DNA of 63,827 bases, filler included, from Collodictyon triciliatum (Eukaryota): the NCBI GenBank assembly GCA_043381765.1. It is 4 parts of 4 records of this genome, joined end to end, with 100 filler letters (N's around TTAATTAATTAA, not from the genome) between each part and the next. Parts side by side here need not be neighbours in the genome. Positions count along the whole stretch, not along the records: positions 24,476 to 48,841 come from JBHJMP010001087.1; 3 more parts are not named here. One strand, given 5' to 3'. Below the pieces are notes generated by a model. The model saw only the letters and a list, made by a program, of their open reading frames with translations. It did not search any database and had not been told where the DNA came from. The position numbers were made by a program, and so were the translations under genes. Numbering within the stretch: position 1 is the first letter of the stretch; each line of letters opens with the position of its first letter. Shown here in pieces: positions 32,205 to 40,694 of the stretch.

Positions 32205-33162
32205 CGCCATCTGCCCTTGCTGGCGCAGAAAAGATGTCTCACCCGCGATGCACCCTGACGTTCTGTTGCCTTGCCAAACACATAAGTCTTAGCACATTCC
32301 AAAAAAACAAAAAACAAAAAACGCCAAACCAAATCCTCGTCGACCCTCGTGCGCTTCTGTAGATCGAATAAATTGCACCACCGTTTGTTTGTTTTGTTCG
32401 TTAGATTATTTGTTTGTTTGTTTGTTTGTTTTGTTTGTTTTGTTTGTTTGATCTATTCTATACCTCGCAATGTGAATAAATGTGGTGATCACGCTGAGAG
32501 CCGCACATGAGAGGAACAAACAAAAAAAAACACCATGAACAAGAAAAATAAAAGTATCTTATGCTGAGAAAATGATAAACACACTGGCAGAGAGAAAAGA
32601 ACACATTCTCCAGAAAATAACATTATTAAACTGGCGTTCTTTCCTTCTTCTTCCAACCCGCTACATTATGAAGCGGAAAAAAAGCAAGTAAGCAGGGAAG
32701 CAAGCGATTGGAAAGAGCGATTCTGAGAAGGCCGACTCAGTCAATCCAGAGAGCGAAAAAGGTCACTTGACCACGTCCCGTACAACACAGGTTATGCACC
32801 GAGACACACCGACGATCAAGACGCCAGCTACCACCGACCTGTGAGTACAACAACCTACTAATAAGACGGAGCGAGCTCTTTGAAACGAATAAAAATTAAT
32901 AATAATGATAATAATAATAATACTAATAATAATAACAACAATAATATTAATATTAATAATATTAATATTAATAGTAATAAAAGGTAATAAAAAAGGCTTC
33001 GGGCTCAAGATCAGTATGAATATAATGCTCAGTATTGGTTGCTCTGATTCATTAATCCGTTTCTTTTTTCTTTTTCATTTTTCGTTTTCTTTTCGGTCTC
33101 ATTTAGCCTGTAAATGGATAAACTTCATTGCAAAGGTTGTGACGAACGTGGTTTTATCCCTT

Positions 33163-33690
33163 TCAAGGCACAATACTATTTATACAACGAAAGTGCACTC
33201 ATATATACAGCTTTATTGCACAGACAACCATCAAATTAAATCTGAGTTGACGAAAGCAGGAGCTTAGATGAATCCAAGAAGCAATCTGAATAATATAATA
33301 GTATGATTAGTATGTATAGAAAGGTTAAATTACTTAATAATCTAATTCTATTCATATAATCAATTTGTTTTTTAATTTTCATTAATGTAATATTATCACT
33401 AAAATTCAAAAAATGCAAACAAAACCCTTGCGTTGATACAGACAGAAATCACCCTATAAACCTGCCACCAAACATGCATTTCAAAAAAGCATACCATCCA
33501 CACTTGTAGCGGTAATCATGTTGTTTGGAGGCGATATGTTGACTTTCAGTCGCAATGGCTATAAGGCTGCCCTTTCGAACTCGCCGAATGAGCTCTCAGC
33601 GTTATGTCTCAAATCACTTATAAAAAACTTTGTGTGTCTGTTTGCCACAAAGCGCACATTTCGAGGGTCTCGGTAGATGCTTAATTATAC
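33163..33690 (-). pseudogene. Degenerate 2-exon cargo gene inside element copy 1 (CxxC-containing, unknown family)
   Basis: KCALCGKQTHKVF...HDYRYKCGWYAFLKCMFGGRF..TQG|LLLGF, joined in frame by a 140-nt GT-AG intron (33286-33425). Several stops. Confidence 0.5.
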
Positions 33691-33808
33691 ATAAATTGAT
33701 TTTGTGCAGTTTTTATATATATTTATTAGATTGACTGATTGACTTAAGTTTTATTAAATTGAAAACTCGGTAGTTTTCTAAAGGAAAAAGTAAAACAAAG
33801 ACTTTCAG

Positions 33809-35758
33809 ATGAAGAAAAGAAAAAGTCTTGAGTCTGAGAAACTAAAGTCTGTAAAATCAGACTATCGAAGTATGAAAACATATCTAAAGTCGATTGTAAA
33901 GAATGCGGATGACTATTAAAAAATCAATGATACGGTTTTGTTGTGTCATAATTTGGTTACCGACACTTATCTGTTTGCAACATGTTACATATTGAAATCA
34001 CAGCAGCTCCCAACAATCGATGAAATGTTTTTTTTTGTACGCTTTAAAGACAATCGGAGTAGTTTCACAAGATAGACCCGCAAGTTTTAAAAAAATCCAG
34101 AAATGAGTAAAGACATGACTTTTTATCTTCATGATTTTCTATTCCTTTTGACCCGAGAAGAACGCTTTCTGTTGGTTGGACTATCTCATGTGTTATCGTA
34201 CTTGGCAAAGCAAATATAACAGCTTATCATAATAACATTAAGGAGCATTTTGTCAAGAGGTTACTGCGCTTTATAAATCAAACAGCTCCTAAAGATGAAG
34301 GATACCACGGGAGTTTTTAAAAAGGCAGAGTTACGAGGTTAAAAAAAAAGCCATATTCAAGAAACTCGAAATACCAGAACAAGACAAAGAAAGGGTTATA
34401 ATACATATGCATCATATCATTCCCAGCGATATTGTAAAAGGTGTCGAATATGACGTCAAAGTGAATCCAAGTAAGTACACTTCATGCCTGATTTACATGA
34501 ATCGTATTTTTGAGGACAGTGGAACCAAACTGTTTCAACCAATCTCTATAAGAGCCAACAATATACCTTGTCATATTAATCTAGATACTGCATGTTTGAT
34601 AGGTCTACTAATATCATCTGGAAAAAAAAATTTATAAAAGACGAATATATCAGGATGCAAAGAGACCCTATGGGATGACTTCTTTGAAATGAAAAAGAGT
34701 GTCTTTAATCAATGAGAATACAATTTTAAATGCATGATACAAACAAACAGCTTGGCGGTGTCATTATTGTTCGAAAAGAAAGTCATTTCAAATTCGAAAT
34801 TCAAAAATAATAATAAAAAAAAAAACCAAGAATATCTTTATATAGATGAACTTTCCGAAGGGCAGTTACCTTTATTAGCGAAAAAAAATAAATAGTTGGA
34901 GTGGACGCAAGCAAGTTTAATTTGGTTTGCATAGTGGGTGAGACAGGTAAGAAATTACGTTACACGGCTCACCAAAGAAGACATGATAGCAAATCTCTTA
35001 AAAATCACCAACTACTCATGCGCAAGAAAAAAAAAGAAAAGTACAATAATTCAGGGATATACATGACAACATGTTTACAAAGCGCAGTTTCTTTTGGTCA
35101 AATGACTTTTGAAGAGAATCGGCAGTTTGAGACATCAAGAGTATCTTTAATCGATTTAGAGACAGAACTGAGTAAACATAATTCACGCGCGGTCGATTAT
35201 GAAAAATTTCGAAAATATGTATCTATGAAATCAAGATTCCAGATAGAATTTCCAGATTTTATGAATAAGTAGCTTTTCGAAAGATGAGATGGGGACAGTA
35301 TGTTAATAGAAAAAGAAGTGAACAATTGTTTATGGACCGAATCGAAAAGACATTTGGCAAGGATGTTGTACTGGCGTATGTAGACTGTAGCAGAAAATCT
35401 CGGATGAACCATTTAATACCAACAATCGGAGGAGGATTACGAAAAATACTACCCAAACGTTTTGAACCAGTTAGTGTAGATGAATTTAGAACCTCCAAGA
35501 TGTGCTGCAACTGCGAAAAATAATTGGAATGTATGAAACTGAAAGGAAATTCAAAAAAAAAGTGCATAGATATCTCATATTTAAAGAATGCAATCGCTCA
35601 GAAAGCAAACTGCATTCTTGATAAGGGACTTTAACAGCGCTAAAGATATACTCAACAAAGTTCTTTTAATCCTTCAAAAAAAAAAACATACACCTCTCTC
35701 TAAAAAACAGGCTGTTGGGTCTTTCCTGGCAGCCTTCGCCACTGCACGGCCTTTGTGA
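33809..35758 (+). pseudogene. Fanzor1 (eukaryotic TnpB/Cas12-related RNA-guided endonuclease) pseudogene, copy 1
   Basis: N-terminal MKTYLKSIVKN..INDTVLLCHNLVTDTYLF, RuvC-I IVGVDASKFNLV (~34892-34930), KLRYTAHQRRHDS, RuvC-II/Zn VDEFRTSKMCCNCEK (~35476-35520) and RuvC-III IRDFNSAKDIL (35621-35653). Intronless, with multiple stops and frameshifts. Confidence 0.9.
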
Positions 35759-35845
35759 AAAAAGTGGCGAGACCTTGGATACTAACGCACCAGGTTTACC
35801 AAACTTTCGATGGTATAACCCTTCTAGCATATTACAAACTTAAAC
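35705..35845 (+). ncRNA. Putative Fanzor omegaRNA scaffold plus flank-derived guide, copy 1
   Basis: Stems 35710-19/35725-34, 35736-43/35763-70 (inner 35745-49/35753-57), ~35770-78/35790-97 and 35797-801/35811-15. They overlap the Fanzor 3' end and abut the element end. Boundaries approximate. Confidence 0.7.
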
Positions 35846-36251
35846 CCAACCCTCTTCCCCTGTTGTCATATCGTCGCCTGCACTTTTATTTTCCAGATAA
35901 GGAAAACTCGTCACAATGTGTCATCATTTTATTGACTGAATTCTTTGAATCACGCAGAACATGTGCCGAGCCACACACAAAGCATCAGTTCGATGCTGTA
36001 AGCGATTCCCTCGAACTCGCAAACACTCTGTCCACTGCCAGACACATGCTGACTCAAAGACCCACAAAGCCCAGTTCTCCCTCTTTTTTTCTTTCCTTTT
36101 TTTTTTTTTTTTTTTTTTAAAAAAAAAACTCTCTTTCCTTTTCTTCACTCTCATTCCATTCCTTTTTTTTTTTTTTTTTTTTTTAAAAAAAAAACACTAT
36201 ATTATTGTTTCGTTATCTTGAAACTGATCAAAGTGCGACAGGTCTCAACCC

Positions 36252-39200
36252 ATGGGCGACTTCAGCGTGCTTCTCTCACTGAAGCCACAGACCTTGAATG
36301 AAAACTTCTTTGTGTGCGCAACCGCAGAGCAGTTGATCGAAGCCACGTACCTGGACTTTCAGTGGAAAAAGATTTCTCTGCTGCACGCCTCCATCGGAAT
36401 GCTATCGAACTTGAGAGAGCTAAACCTCTCAAAGAACGAAGTTTATATTGTTATTTCTAATAACTTTGCAGTATATGTGTCACCCAGCTTCCCAGTCTCT
36501 CCCTCTCCTTCTCTGCTTTTTTTTGATTCCTTTTTTTCTTATCGTAAAACAACTCCTCTCTTCAAGTTAATCACAGTCCCAGACTCTGTTTCTGCACTGC
36601 AAAACCTAATCTGCTGGATCTTGGACACAAACAAAGTATTCATATCTTCAATCACCGGATATAATATGCTATATTCAATTACTTTTACCCTATCGATAGC
36701 CGTCTATACAAGTCGACTAATTTTTTTTATTGATTTTTCTCCTAATTCTTTACATAGACTAATCTATTGCTACTTTGATACCCCTAGCTCACTGGACTGC
36801 CTATCACAATTTCGAAGCTAGTTCATCTGACTTATCTCTCCTTGCATGACAATCACGTACCATTTTCTATTTTATAAAGTCGCTTATTTACCCCCCTTCT
36901 CTTCATGAGGGTCATTGAAACTCATTCATAGAATTTTCCACAAACACTATGGTGTATATACTTATTAAAATCGAAACTGTGCAGCTGTCAGCCCTTCCGG
37001 ATGCTTTCCAAGACATGACGAATCTGAATGTGCTGAACGTGTCTCGCAATCAAGTATTTCTCCAAAGAGATCATCCCTGCTAGATTTCCCACAACACCTA
37101 TTCCCTTCAATCCGTCTTGGTGGATGTGTGCGTCCCTTACCCTCATGCCTATTTCCAAACATCTTTGCAGATTGTCAGTTTGCCTCAGACCATATCTTGC
37201 CTAGTTGCACTCCGCGATTTACTCCTGTCAAACAACAAGGTGTCTCATCAATAACACAATTCAATTCCTGCCTATTTTGAAAGGGTCTTTGGTTTACTTT
37301 CAAATCACTCTAACATGTGTCTTGCCTATCCTCGATGATTTCTTTAGTTGACTCTGCTGCCGTTTGCTATAAGCTGCCTCACCAACCTATCTGGGTTCAG
37401 TGCACAGCACAACCAAGTTTGTCCATTATTTTCTTGCCTTATTCGACACCATGAATATATTTTGATTTCAAACTATCACCAGTTCATGCACATCCTTATA
37501 TAATGGAATTTTAACAATTTTTCTTTTAAAAAAATATAATCAAGTTATCCGTCCTACCCTATACCATCGGGCAACTGACTTCCCTTCGTGAATTCATTCT
37601 GGGTTCTCCATCATCACCAAACGAGCCGCCATCAAACTATGTACTCTTATCCATGAAATCCAAACTTGTGTACAATACGAAAGCATACAGTCAGAAATAT
37701 ATTGACATACTAATCTTTTCCTCTTTTCCCTTTTTTTTTTCTATTTTCCCTCGTACCCCCTCCCTCATGTATATTTATATTTCCTCTCCCATGGCGGTAG
37801 ATTATTAAGCTACCTCTGTCAATTGCAAACCTAAGTAAACTGGAGCGGCTTGAAATATCAGGTTTACCGCTTGAGTTTCCAAAGAGCGATATAGTCCAAT
37901 TAGGGACAAAGGGTATGATGAATTACATAGCCAACTTCTCCAAGGAAGAAAAACACCTCAATTACATCCGCCTGATTTTCATTGGCGACGAGGCGACGGG
38001 GAAGACTACCATCATCAACAACCTTGTTCTCAACACAATTCGCTTCGAAAGCCAATGTAGACCGGAATACATCCCAACCAACTCCATCGAAATATGCCGC
38101 GAATCGTACTACTTCCATCACGATGGCGATCACATATCCGCTTTCATTTGGGACTTCCCCGGAGACCCGGTCAACCGCGTCTACTACCCTTATTTCTTCT
38201 CCTCGGAGTCTCTAATAGTCTTCACTTGGGATGCCAGTAAAGACCCCGACTCATCTAACTTGCATGCCTGGGCATCGATGTTTTCAATGTTTGCGGTGGG
38301 CGCCCCAATCATTGTGGCGGGTACAAAGCTCGACCTTGTGTCGCGTGAGGACAGTCACCAATTGGAAGCTCGCCTTGAGACTGTAAAGAACACGTTCTCT
38401 TCCTTCCAATACTCTCTGAACATTATTGATTACATTTTCTTGAGCAATCTCACTGGAGAGCACCTCTTTAAGCTTCGCATGATGATGTCCAAATATGCCT
38501 TCCATTCTGTAACATCGGGAAGACTTTATCCAAACTACTTTCTTCAATACTCGCGCATAGCCGACGGCTTCACCAGATTTCAGCCCTCCCCTATCGCCTC
38601 CATTCAAGAGATGGAGCGCAACCTCGCGATGTTCCATCCCAGCATGAGCCTTACTGATTGCCTGGAAAAGCTTCACGACCTGGGCATGCTTTTCTGGGTC
38701 GACATGGAGCATCTGCGCGAGACTGTCTATTGCCACGCACCCTATTTAATCCGTATCTTTTCTCAGATATTCTACTCTGGTCGCAGCAAATCAGACATGG
38801 GCTTCTATCCCACAGACGAGCTGCTGTCCAAGTTAGAAGACACCTTCCCGGGATATTCCGAGCTTGTCGTTTCAATCCTTCGCCGATTCCAACTCTCATT
38901 CCCAAACGTCCTAGGACAGTATGAAATATTCCCGTATCTCCTGGCTGAAGGAAACCCGCACCCGTCGATTTGGTCGTGGAGCCCCTTACCATCAGATCAT
39001 TCGTACTGCACGTGCGAATTGGAGTTTAATATGATGCCCGAGATTGCATACGCCTCCCTGCTATGTCGGCTCTACCCTGTTCTTCATCGTGACTATTCGT
39101 CCCTGACTGGAGTCACACACGAGTACCTGTCATCAAACATGTTTGTGTTCACGATCTCGGCAAATCGCAGAGCCCCGAACGAACCCACTTATCACGCCTG

Positions 39201-40694
39201 CCTTGTCCGAGGCGGGGCACAAAACAGGCTCTACATCTCGGTGCGCTCCACCAACGCAAAATATCCTTCCTTCGAGTGCATGAAACATCTCACGAACTTA
39301 ATCACCCGCTCGCTCTCTTACTTTAAGAACGTCTTGCTGCAAAGCCGTCGCCTGGTGTGTCCTTCATGCTCCTTGGTGGAACCAAACTTTGAGGCGTGTG
39401 GCAGAGTCACGCTGGATGGAATCAATGTAGGAGATGAGGGCACAATCATGTGTGCCAAAGAGACCCGTTCCTTTAAGGTGGAGGAGTGGATGGAAGGACT
39501 CCGTAATCGCCACAGTCTATCTGCACCGGTGGCCAAGCCAGTTCGTGCGCGGTCTCTTAGCGAGGGCTCTGTTTTGCCGCAGGATGAGGAGACTGAGAAT
39601 TCGCATCTTTTCGTGCCCTCCGTCCTTCAGATAGAGCGTTCACCAACACCAGAAAATCCTCGTGATTTCGCGGTCACTTTCCACATCCTGTGCGACCGCC
39701 CAGAAGGCCCGCATCGATGCGCTGCGTCCGCCACCGGTATTCGCGTCTCTTGCTCGAGGATTCTGGCACAACCGAAGGTATTGGACTACTTCCTGCGCCT
39801 ATGGAAGCCAAAGGTTTCTGAGATGAAACTGGACGAGTACCGAAATGTGAGTGAGGCCGACTTGGCCACATGGCTTGTGCAGAAGGGCTCGGACCCGTTT
39901 CGTGTCCCGCTGACTCCGTCGTATGCGCAAGTCCTTGCCTTGATTGACCCGCAGGCAGAATGGCGGCTCCATTTGCAGTCGAGTCCCTTGCACGACAATC
40001 ATCCACGGTATCTCTGCAAACACTGCAACTATCTTGCGCAGCAAGGCTGGAGCAGCTACACGGCTCACACATCGACGTCCTTGTCTGGGTACATGCTCTA
40101 TCGCCACGAGGCCTTCTATAAGTTGTGGGAGCGCCGCTATTTTGTCCTGGACCACGAAAAGAAGGCCCTTGTTCGCTATCATGATGCCACAAAAACGTAT
40201 CAGAGCGGGGTCATTCGCCTGAATGGCCATTTCGAGGTTTTTGGCTGATATCTTTATTTTTATCTGTTTTTGTGATATTATTTTTATTTTTCATTATTTA
40301 TTTATTTCCAGCGATAACAGTAAAAGAAAGAAAGAAAGAAAGGTGAATACTTGCTCAGGCTCTGACTCATCACGATTCAATATATTTCCCTTATTAGATT
40401 GGCTCTCAGTCCTTCGGAGACGACATGGCTGGTTTTTACATACACGTTGGCAGAACAAAGTATCAGTTCAAGGTTTGAGTGCATCCTTGTTTCTTTGTTT
40501 CTTTTGTTTTATTTACACCCACTATCCATTTGATTATGCAGATGATAGGAGGGGAATGTGCACAGTCTAATCTATTCAACTCCAAAGCGATTCGGCAAAC
40601 CACTCACATCAAAAGTTTTTTTTATAATGCAACACAGGCTAAAACCGCGACAGAGCGCGACGCGTGGCTGGTGAACATCCAAAAGTGCCGATAA
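36252..40694 (+). CDS. Roco-family protein: LRR - ROC GTPase - COR - PH, no kinase domain seen
   Basis: One-repeat-per-exon LRRs (LSNLRELNLSKNE, MTNLNVLNVSRNQ, LVALRDLLLSNNK). ROC LIFIGDEATGKTTII, IWDFPG and IIVAGTKLDL. COR-like LHDLGMLFW, RFQLSF and FPYLL. PH SGYMLYR..FYKLWERRYFVLD...AKTATERDAWLVNI. Confidence 0.88.

Follow-up and report, generated by a model that had tools for sequence, protein, structure and literature searches.

At the 3' end of a broken nuclease gene in Collodictyon triciliatum (assembly GCA_043381765.1), the final 123 nt of a ~3.4 kb repeat can be drawn as a row of stem-loops, and the repeat occurs twice in the window, i.e. in the whole analysed stretch of DNA of 63,827 nt. 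This locus raises the question of whether the tail is the guide scaffold of a Fanzor nuclease and whether the differences between the two copies are a record of selection for RNA structure, both of which had been proposed in a sequence-only reading. The two parts of that proposal fared differently. The tail is probably the decaying omegaRNA coding end of a Fanzor1 transposon that is dead and non-autonomous, as judged from its sequence and position, so that the guide-scaffold identity stands as plausible, whereas the base changes between the two copies carry no report of selection. The coordinates of all features are collected in Table 1.

Table 1. Features of the two element copies in the window
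Feature	Position	Strand	Remarks
Element copy 1, ~3.4 kb	32445..35827	+	Left end near TCTATTC (+/- few bases); right end CTAG
Element copy 2	58259..61635	+	From blastn and end alignments
Broken Fanzor1 gene, copy 1	33809..35758	+	tblastn with P0004, ORF lists
Broken Fanzor1 gene, copy 2	59652..61480	+	tblastn with P0004, ORF lists
RuvC-I, copy 1	34904-34906 (D)		VGVDASKFNLV
RuvC-II, copy 1	35482-35484 (E)		VDEFRTSK
RuvC-III, copy 1	35624-35653		RDFNSAKDIL
In-frame TAA in zinc finger	35521..35523 (copy 1), 61322-61324 (copy 2)	+	Common to both copies
Candidate omegaRNA scaffold, copy 1	35705..35827	+	Four stem-loops; sequence and RNAfold
Counterpart tail, copy 2	61511..61635	+	Breaks five pairs of the copy-1 fold
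Terminal hairpin TACCA-N9-TGGTA	35797..35815	+	12 nt short of the 3' end
Flank, putative guide source if the tail was transcribed as omegaRNA	35828..35847	+	Unrelated between copies

In blastn, positions 32445-35837 aligned with 58259-61647 at 81% identity, and end alignments showed that the similarity of the copies stops at CTAG. Related contig pieces were present in three public runs (100, 171 and 154 pieces), and these placed the right end at the same site: depth in the three runs was 18-47 in the bin 35784-35824, below 1 in the next bin and 0 further on, contig cover ended at 35825-35827, and one contig went into unrelated DNA right after 35827. Three contigs from the runs X3 and X5 lacked 176-245 nt of the 3' part of the ORF and resumed at 35702-35711, indicating that the tail had been kept in these deletion derivatives.

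The ORF in front of the tail could be assigned through an intact relative, P0004 (634 aa), which shares 49% identity with the window fragment across 98 residues. In tblastn (E 2e-87), residues 1-558 of P0004 aligned with copy 1, split into five frame pieces, and P0004 matched the solved SpuFz1 (8gkh; E 9e-37, residues 14-607), PpFz1 (E 7e-34) and GtFz1 (E 7e-16). By sequence similarity, the adjoining ORF is a Fanzor1, linked to the solved structures indirectly via P0004. A protein search with a 111-aa read-through fragment yielded 949 proteins at E <= 1e-3, 128 of them at E <= 1e-10. PF07282 was the sole Pfam match of the gene (E 0.03-0.05), and the uninterrupted ORF fragments gave nothing relevant in Pfam and nothing in NCBIfam. 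An 84-aa window fragment retrieved no homologous proteins of greater length, and none in prokaryote genome contigs. In viral contigs, no further copies were obtained with P0156 and P0003 as queries, and a 22-nt pattern from a conserved coding stretch had 0 matches.

Both Fanzor1 genes in the window are pseudogenes. Copy 1 kept the D, E and D of its three RuvC motifs, but its reading frame changes at least four times and is also interrupted by the in-frame TAA; its zinc finger showed CCNC, with one cysteine pair lost (YLIFKEC). In copy 2, the E of RuvC-II is replaced by D (VDDFRTSK) and the D of RuvC-III by Q (RQFTSTKNIL). Since the TAA codon is common to both copies and intact relatives have E or V at this codon (P0003 ...CCNCEKELQ; P0005 ...CNCEKVLQ), both copies derive from a gene that was already dead. 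A contig of depth 55 lacked 3 nt at the site of the shared TAA, with one such contig in X3 and one in X5. An alternative genetic code as explanation of the TAA was rejected on account of the long host ORFs, which are open under the standard code, the E or V of the relatives and the frameshifts.

The stems described in the sequence-only reading and the base changes it listed were all found by sequence comparison. In copy 1, stem 1 is formed by GGCTGTTGGG pairing with CCTGGCAGCC, and stem 2 by TCGCCACT and AGTGGCGA with CACGG/TTGTG nested inside; a weaker third stem and the terminal stem TACCA/TGGTA complete the four stem-loops. RNAfold recovered these stems at -39.2 kcal/mol (z -2.61), a value equalled by 4 of 200 shuffles, while flanks of equal length showed no advantage over shuffles (z +0.55 and +0.60). 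The fold was kept when the five family-majority letters were introduced into copy 1 (z -2.6; 6/300 shuffles). The tail of copy 2, by itself, gave z -0.73 and was matched by 40 of 200 shuffles, so that its fold is not above shuffles, a result that the sequence-only reading had omitted. For the minus strands of the tail, folding was similar to that of the plus strand (z -1.36 and -1.29). In Rfam, no match at the gathering score was obtained for the entire window. A 21-nt pattern from the scaffold had 0 matches in viral contigs, and its five matches in metagenome contigs (L001-L005) proved on inspection and by blastn to be unrelated chance matches.

The candidate omegaRNA identity of the tail is plausible because the adjoining broken ORF is a Fanzor1, because the tail runs from behind RuvC-III (its start lies ~50 nt behind this motif) to the defined right end of the element at CTAG, and because it has four stem-loops and a size as in known Fanzor1 omegaRNAs. 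The final ~17 codons of the frame with RuvC-III lie within the tail (ORF 35585..35758, with the stop codon TGA at 35756-35758). Fanzor1 omegaRNAs are located in the segment that separates the end of the ORF from the right end of the element, may overlap the last 17 codons and may reach 14-15 nt into the flank, the SpuFz1 guide extending 14-15 nt past the scaffold (PMC10432273, in excerpt), and they comprise 75-150 nt with 2-4 stem-loops (PMC11423790, in excerpt). The tail is most likely an ordinary new example of this known design.

Among the systems compared, Spu-1 and ghost Spu-1 of Spizellomyces punctatus are Fanzor1-only, as is the window element; a structured tail between the ORF end and the right end is common to both, with the guide taken from the flank in Spu-1, and ORF-less or ORF-damaged copies retain the tail in both families. 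Spu-1 differs in its 30-nt inverted repeats within the scaffold, whereas the window element has none and is bounded by 5'-TC...CTAG-3'. The SpuFz1 scaffold is 75 nt long, compared with ~123 nt in the window, and its expression and binding have been demonstrated (all from parts of PMC10432273), whereas the window tail is a candidate scaffold. The GtFz1 omegaRNA of Guillardia theta resembles the tail in its ~four stem-loops and ~150 nt and in its overlap with the last 17 codons, compared with ~17 codons of the RuvC-III frame in the window (PMC10432273 and PMC11423790, each in part). The two RNAs were compared by description only, and the GtFz1 protein is distant from the window family, as its E-value against P0004 indicates.

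Judging from the published family, the transcript of an active ancestor would have contained the last Fanzor1 codons, the non-coding tail and 15-20 nt of host flank, and would have folded into about four stem-loops and been bound by Fanzor1. With the flank as guide, the nuclease would have been led to the empty insertion site, and the element would have been copied back through repair. The carrier transposon, too, is probably served by the last hairpin and the CTAG terminus. Both window copies come from an already broken gene and have drifted neutrally, tail included, and the structure would be a relic.

A different reading of the stems is that they are merely DNA-level end signals of a Helitron-type (HUH, rolling-circle) carrier, in which the 3' subterminal hairpin and the CTAG terminus would act as the stop signal for the transposase, the remainder of the tail being a 3' UTR with no guide role. 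Several properties of the ends agree with this. Both copies start with TCTATTC and end with CTAG, matching the 5'-TC and 3'-CTRR termini of Helitrons, and the terminal hairpin, with its stem of 5 bp, is located as in Helitrons, where a hairpin precedes the 3' end by about 10-12 nt. No terminal inverted repeat was found among the 25 longest of 172 inverted pairs, and no target-site duplication was seen at the ends of either copy in the end alignments. The right flanks begin with T, T, T and C, the T being observed in copy 2 and two metagenome variants, and the left flanks end with A and T, so that four of six flanks follow the Helitron A/T insertion rule. In the terminal hairpin, the copy-1 loop corresponds to that of a metagenome variant in exactly inverted form (loose contig end at 35802), which points to hairpin formation at the DNA level. 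The near-equal folding of the minus strand also fits an end signal, as does the capture of Fanzor1 genes by Helitrons, which has already been published (PMC3627910 and PMC10530073, in part).

Against this reading, the terminal hairpin is short and, folded as DNA, gave -4.8 kcal/mol with a z of -1.94 for copy 1 and -0.86 for copy 2. Stems of greater strength, the best two of the tail, are situated at 60-120 nt from the end, outside the zone expected for Helitron signals. No Helitron or PIF1 domain, and thus no RepHel gene, was detected by Pfam in the ten long ORFs of the window, and the left end of the element is defined by two copies only. Furthermore, the Helitron-borne Fanzor1 protein of Chlamydomonas is stabilised by a conserved guide RNA at the 3' end (PMC10530073, in part), indicating that the two roles are compatible. 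That end signals are the whole explanation is considered unlikely.

In Chlamydomonas reinhardtii, CrFNuc-1 (Fanzor1c) is carried by a Helitron2, so that, as proposed here, a Fanzor1 resides in a Helitron-type carrier without classical inverted repeats (PMC3627910, in part), and it likewise has a conserved structured RNA at the 3' end (3'-UTR fRNA) and non-autonomous copies (PMC10530073, in part). Chlamydomonas Helitron2 elements have asymmetric terminal repeats, a hairpin at each end and target duplications that vary (both sources, in part). The window ends, in contrast, look like those of a canonical Helitron1 (TC...CTRR), and only a weak asymmetric repeat could be recognised by eye (9/10; TATACC-TCG / TATACCATCG).

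A combined reading, in which a freshwater eukaryote would have a canonical Helitron-type element (TC...CTAG, HUH-driven) with a 3' region that is both the transposase stop signal and the Fanzor1 guide-RNA scaffold, is regarded as distinctly unlikely. Copies with a dead nuclease would then still be transcribed and be served in trans by intact members, and a rolling-circle transposon would gain RNA-guided homing. On this reading, the stem-1 loop UCUUUC could make a loop-loop contact with GAAAGA in the loop of the last hairpin and so help to fold the scaffold; GAAAGA was observed in copy 2 and in the metagenome variant, and was lost from copy 1 through the inversion of the loop. That Fanzors aid the homing of single-strand (HUH) transposons, as TnpB does for IS200/IS605, is an open idea in the literature (PMC10432273, in part); the window copies are no test of it, because both are dead and drifting. 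The prokaryotic counterpart is the reRNA/omegaRNA of ISDra2 TnpB (IS200/IS605), a guide RNA that covers the 3' end of the nuclease gene and the right end of an HUH-moved element and whose end hairpins are doubly used (PMC10432273 and PMC10711439, in part). Its pseudoknot, formed between the five nucleotides before the guide and the loop of stem-loop 1 (PMC10711439, in part), has no counterpart in the window tail: when compared by eye, UCUAG in front of the putative guide was not complementary to UCUUU of the stem-1 loop.

The fold might also be incidental, the tail being a somewhat G+C-richer 3' end of a dead element with no RNA or DNA function. The modest z value of copy 1 and the poor fold of copy 2 are in line with this, and so are the neutral divergence of the copies, the lack of excess conservation in the tail and the chance-level covariation reported below. 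Giant-virus contigs bear on this reading in both directions. Distant intact relatives in such contigs (L006-L014) have a structured RNA at the corresponding place, comprising the 3' end of the ORF and the right end, in which double changes occurred in 9 of 12 pairs, and 4 of 500 shuffles matched this number; the covariation score was 0.651, whereas shuffles gave 0.271 and slid controls no more than 0.167. These mariner-type elements, grouped with the PGv-1-type elements of Bao and Jurka (2013), belong to the same broad Fanzor1 family as the window element, but have ~30-bp inverted repeats ending GGTGTAAA, which the window element does not have, and their covarying 3' RNA was not linked to the window tail by models in either direction. 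A covariance model of the two window copies found nothing at the 3' ends of L006-L014 (best hit 10.1 bits, E 0.54, at an unrelated place), and a model of the relatives' RNA gave no match at either window copy (E <= 10, filters off). Homology of the tail to the giant-virus RNA, which had been suggested by a similar layout seen by eye (CCTTC-ACC stem ... GG-GA-A...TTGG), is not proposed, given these two negative searches.

What speaks against an incidental fold is that the tail occupies exactly the place where Fanzor1 guide RNAs are encoded (PMC10432273, in part), that a covarying RNA is found at the same place in the giant-virus relatives, that the fold is preserved in the family-majority version, that the tail is retained in deletion derivatives, and that copy 1, copy 2 and a metagenome variant share the same terminal stem although the loop differs. 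An incidental fold is held to be improbable, and a decaying omegaRNA end is preferred.

The sequence-only reading had gone further and taken the differences between the copies as the trace of purifying selection acting on RNA structure through compensatory evolution. It had listed a G-C to A-U double change in copy 2 at 35738/35768 (copy-1 coordinates), two G-U to A-U changes, one change from U-G to C-G and, in stem 1, two mismatches; it had left out three further broken pairs of copy 2, two of them in stem 3 and the third at the base of stem 2. The copy-1 fold comprises 35 pairs, of which 26 were unchanged in copy 2, four were changed yet still paired (one of them by the double change) and five were broken. 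When all 24 substitutions were placed at random, at least one compensated double change occurred in 41% of 20,000 trials; the energy of copy 2 threaded onto the fold was better than expected (P 0.021), and the five broken pairs compared with a mean of 8.5 (P 0.067). This marginal signal vanished when the 6-nt loop block, the product of one inversion, was given the weight of one event; the probabilities were then 0.50 for at most five broken pairs, 0.30 for at least one double change and 0.15 for the energy. The observed counts of structure pairs were also reached by 252 of 500 shuffles. Covariation between the copies was accordingly not significant (chance P 0.30-0.41), in a test that rests on only two full copies and has little power. 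The five best-supported family-majority letters broke no pair, but five random transitions did likewise in 25% of trials.

The double change itself consists of two transitions, each at a CpG site, and the two sites are paired in the fold. Across the element, 82 of 472 substitutions were in CpG context, and CpG observed/expected was 0.85-0.93, which supports CpG hypermutation only in part, and it was rejected as the complete cause of the double change. In run X5, position 35738 was A at full depth, yet T at 35768 reached only 43.8 of 95.5. The path between the copies was neutral, since differences in the ORF were distributed over the codon positions as 65:59:62 and the ratio of synonymous to nonsynonymous changes was 36:106. 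Identity between the copies was 72-80% in the tail, compared with 82-95% for most ORF remnants, so that the tail was not conserved above the dead ORF. With compensation at chance level, neutral divergence of the copies and no excess conservation, the claim that the copy differences record selection on RNA structure is very unlikely to hold. The lesson is mainly negative: one compensated pair between two pseudogene copies of 81% identity is to be expected by chance and does not indicate selection for RNA structure.

If the identification of the tail and its gene is true, a large, uncharacterised Fanzor1 family is added, the carrier of which looks Helitron-like rather than mariner-like, a feature with bearing on the homing idea named above. 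Related contig pieces, at 80-99% identity, number in the hundreds and come from a freshwater metagenome and from the runs of two organisms, in addition to the related proteins mentioned above.

The candidate omegaRNA scaffold forms the last 123 nt of copy 1 of a repeated element, and remains of a TnpB-like gene lie upstream of it on the same strand. Pfam gave a sole, sub-threshold match to this gene (PF07282, E 0.03-0.05), and a 111-aa read-through fragment, used as query in a full HMMER scan, retrieved 949 proteins with E <= 1e-3, 128 of them with E <= 1e-10. In tblastn, residues 1-558 of P0004, an intact 634-aa Fanzor1 relative, matched copy 1 (33809-35568, E 2e-87), the match being split into five pieces that lie in different frames. 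P0004 also matched the solved Fanzor1 structures SpuFz1 (8gkh, residues 14-607, E 9e-37), PpFz1 (E 7e-34) and GtFz1 (E 7e-16); these matches identify the gene as a Fanzor1, and neither copy of it is intact. An in-frame TAA within the zinc finger, at a codon that is E or V in intact relatives, is common to both, indicating that they stem from an already dead gene; the 58 nt that include it are identical between the copies. The Fanzor1 system in the window is dead. In each of the public sequencing runs X3 and X5, one depth-55 contig had 3 nt missing at the TAA site, which hints at intact versions elsewhere.

Features of the element, its tail and the surrounding window
Feature	Position	Strand	Detail
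Element, copy 1 / copy 2	32445-35837 / 58259-61647		~3.4 kb, 81% identical
Tail, copy 1	35705-35827	+
Tail, copy 2	61511-61635	+
RuvC-I, Fanzor1 remnant		+	VGVDASKFNLV
RuvC-II, Fanzor1 remnant		+	VDEFRTSK
Zinc finger, Fanzor1 remnant		+	CCNC
RuvC-III	35624-35653	+	RDFNSAKDIL
Common TAA, copy 1 / copy 2	35521-35523 / 61322-61324
Stem 1, copy 1 tail			11 bp, RNAfold
Stem 2, copy 1 tail			8 bp, around 4-5 bp inner stem, RNAfold
Stem 3, copy 1 tail			7 bp, interrupted, RNAfold
Terminal stem, copy 1 tail			5 bp, RNAfold
(GTTT)n microsatellite	32380-32447		copy 1 follows directly
Upstream of Fanzor1 homology, copy 1 / copy 2	32445-33808 / 58259-59650		~1.36 kb, no recognised gene
AT-rich low-complexity stretch	32890-32990		within the preceding region
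Roc/Ras GTPase frame	37801-40248		815 aa, ~2 kb downstream of copy 1
G+C-rich region	52001-54000		67% G+C vs 31-52% elsewhere in window

Both tail sequences, when re-read, were as the sequence-only reading had described them, and their alignment was unambiguous (125 columns, two single-base gaps). The stems proposed for copy 1 were likewise those of the RNAfold structure, with 35 pairs in total and an energy of -39.2 kcal/mol (z -2.61) equalled by 4 of 200 shuffles. Copy 2 alone adopted a partly different fold that did not outperform shuffles (z -0.73; 40 of 200 were as good), and the plus strand of the tail did not consistently fold better than the minus strand.

Four public runs were compared with 34800-36000 at 80% likeness. 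Related contig pieces numbered 100 in X1 (a freshwater metagenome), 3 in X2, 171 in X3 and 154 in X5, indicating that the element family is large. Similarity between the copies stops at CTAG. Depth in the bin 35784-35824 was 24.7, 0, 17.9 and 46.8 in X1, X2, X3 and X5, respectively, falling one bin later to 0.7, 0, 0.71 and 0.34, and then to 0. Unrelated DNA started immediately after 35827 in one X1 contig, and two contigs of a second variant read ...GATGGTACAATCCTTCTAG and then other DNA. Judged from these sequences, a right end at CTAG can be regarded as well established. Three contigs from X3 and X5 represented deletion derivatives, joining 35465, 35466 or 35525 to 35702-35711 across 4-11 intervening letters; these lose the 3′ part of the ORF and keep the tail. 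A scan of metagenome contigs for further copies yielded only chance matches.

In an active ancestor, a transcript of the gene's 3′ end, continuing through the tail into 15-20 nt of flank, would have folded, bound Fanzor1 and guided it to the empty site, a scheme demonstrated for SpuFz1 and others (PMC10432273). Known Fanzor1 omegaRNAs measure 75-150 nt and have two to four stem-loops (PMC11423790). The tail itself was observed to have its position, the fold of copy 1, a family-wide right end and retention in deletion derivatives; its RNA may once have been transcribed, bound and used as a guide. That it is a new Fanzor1 omegaRNA of known type is moderately probable. The guide-scaffold identity put forward by the sequence-only reading is plausible from the adjoining Fanzor1 gene, the position and the copy 1 fold; the covariation offered with it was at chance level and is unsupported.

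The tail of copy 2 differs from that of copy 1 at 24 substituted positions and by two insertions. Of the 35 pairs in the copy 1 fold, 26 are unchanged in copy 2, four are changed yet still paired (one double, three one-sided) and five are broken: stems 1 and 3 lose two each, and stem 2 loses one at its base. The reported G-C to A-U double change is present at pair 35738/35768 and consists of transitions on both sides, at CpG sites pairing with each other. Across the element, 82 of 472 substitutions had CpG context, and CpG was not depleted (observed/expected 0.85-0.93). Among the 40 best-supported differences in the runs (250 more lay beyond these), five (35738 G>A, 35744 G>A, 35749 G>A, 35768 C>T and 35785 A>G) lay within the tail. 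The letters at these sites are those of copy 2, indicating that A-U is the usual family state and the G-C of copy 1 the minority. Placed in copy 1, they broke no pair and kept the fold (-38.3 kcal/mol, z -2.6); five random transitions left all pairs intact in 25% of trials.

When copy 1 was given 24 randomly placed substitutions, the number of transitions being held (20,000 trials), at least one compensated double change arose by chance in 41% of trials. Broken pairs numbered 5 against a mean of 8.5 (P 0.067), and threaded energy gave P 0.021. The marginal signal comes from six neighbouring differences in the last-hairpin loop, which count as one event because the copy 1 loop (CTTTCGA, 35803-35809) is the exact reverse complement of TCGAAAG in the X1 variant; copy 2 has TAGAAAG. 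From its sequence, the copy 1 loop was inverted between the hairpin arms by a small inversion. Once this block was removed, the 18 remaining point changes could not be told from random ones: P was 0.50 for broken <= 5, 0.61 for kept >= 4, 0.30 for double >= 1 and 0.15 for energy. In a shuffle test of the structure pairs, the observed values were reached by 252 of 500 shuffles. The copies diverge neutrally: 186 differences in five ORF pieces were distributed 65:59:62 over codon positions (chi-square P 0.86), and codons with a single difference between the copies comprised 36 synonymous and 106 nonsynonymous cases. Tail identity was 72-80% in 60-column windows vs 82-95% for most ORF remnants, so the tail has no extra conservation relative to the dead ORF. 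By random placement, neutral divergence and conservation, the proposed selection on RNA structure is not visible between the two copies, two full copies being all that covariation within the window rests on and the main limit of the analysis.

UCUUUC in the stem-1 loop complements GAAAGA in the loop of the last hairpin, both in copy 2 (61526-61531 with 61612-61617) and in the X1 variant; in copy 1, where the stem-1 loop site is 35720-35725, the loop inversion abolishes the match. This complementarity, spotted after the fact, could be a loop-loop contact; the chance of such a match was roughly estimated at a few per cent before correction for many loop pairs.

Nine loci in giant-virus contigs (L006-L014; L007-L009 alike at this end), are relatives of P0004 and two other proteins. 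Their genes are intact, and they have inverted repeats of ~30 bp as well as a structured RNA that covers the 3′ end of the ORF. Seven RNA sequences showed double changes in 9 of 12 predicted pairs, reached by 4 of 500 shuffles, and a covariation score of 0.651 vs 0.271 for shuffles and <= 0.167 for slid controls. This shows that this branch of Fanzor1 keeps a selected RNA at the ORF 3′ end; it does not prove that the window tail is such an RNA. A model from the window copies had no match in the relatives' 3′ ends, a model from the relatives had none in either window copy (E <= 10, filters off), and Rfam had none in the window. A likeness of layout seen by eye is not claimed, since these searches were negative. 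Among L006 (4798-4952), L007-L009 and L011-L014, the outer helix of the RNA is GACC/GGTC or GATT/AATC, the inner helix differs in length and sequence, and the inverted repeats end in GGTGTAAA.

No terminal inverted repeat was found for the window's element, and no target duplication was seen at either copy. The element starts with TC and finishes with CTAG, it has a hairpin whose end lies 12 nt short of the terminus, and insertion between A and T fits 4 of 6 flanks. These are canonical Helitron marks according to Bao and Jurka 2013 (PMC3627910), where Fanzor1 genes captured by Helitrons are also reported; Jiang et al. 2023 (PMC10530073) describe a conserved 3′ RNA of Helitron-borne Fanzor1. 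Either the transposase or the guide RNA, or both, may therefore make use of the terminal hairpin. TTG lies one base ahead of the TC start in both copies (TTGA/TC and TTGT/TC); it may have arisen by chance or represent a target or TAM-like motif.

The region upstream of the Fanzor1 homology contains blocks 82-92% identical between the copies and could be a promoter/5′ UTR, an N-terminal extension or captured DNA. Long open frames occur on each strand of the G+C-rich region, and Pfam gave no match for its 590-aa frame. The 815-aa frame carries a Roc/Ras GTPase domain (PF08477, E 3.9e-14) and is a ROCO-type host gene.
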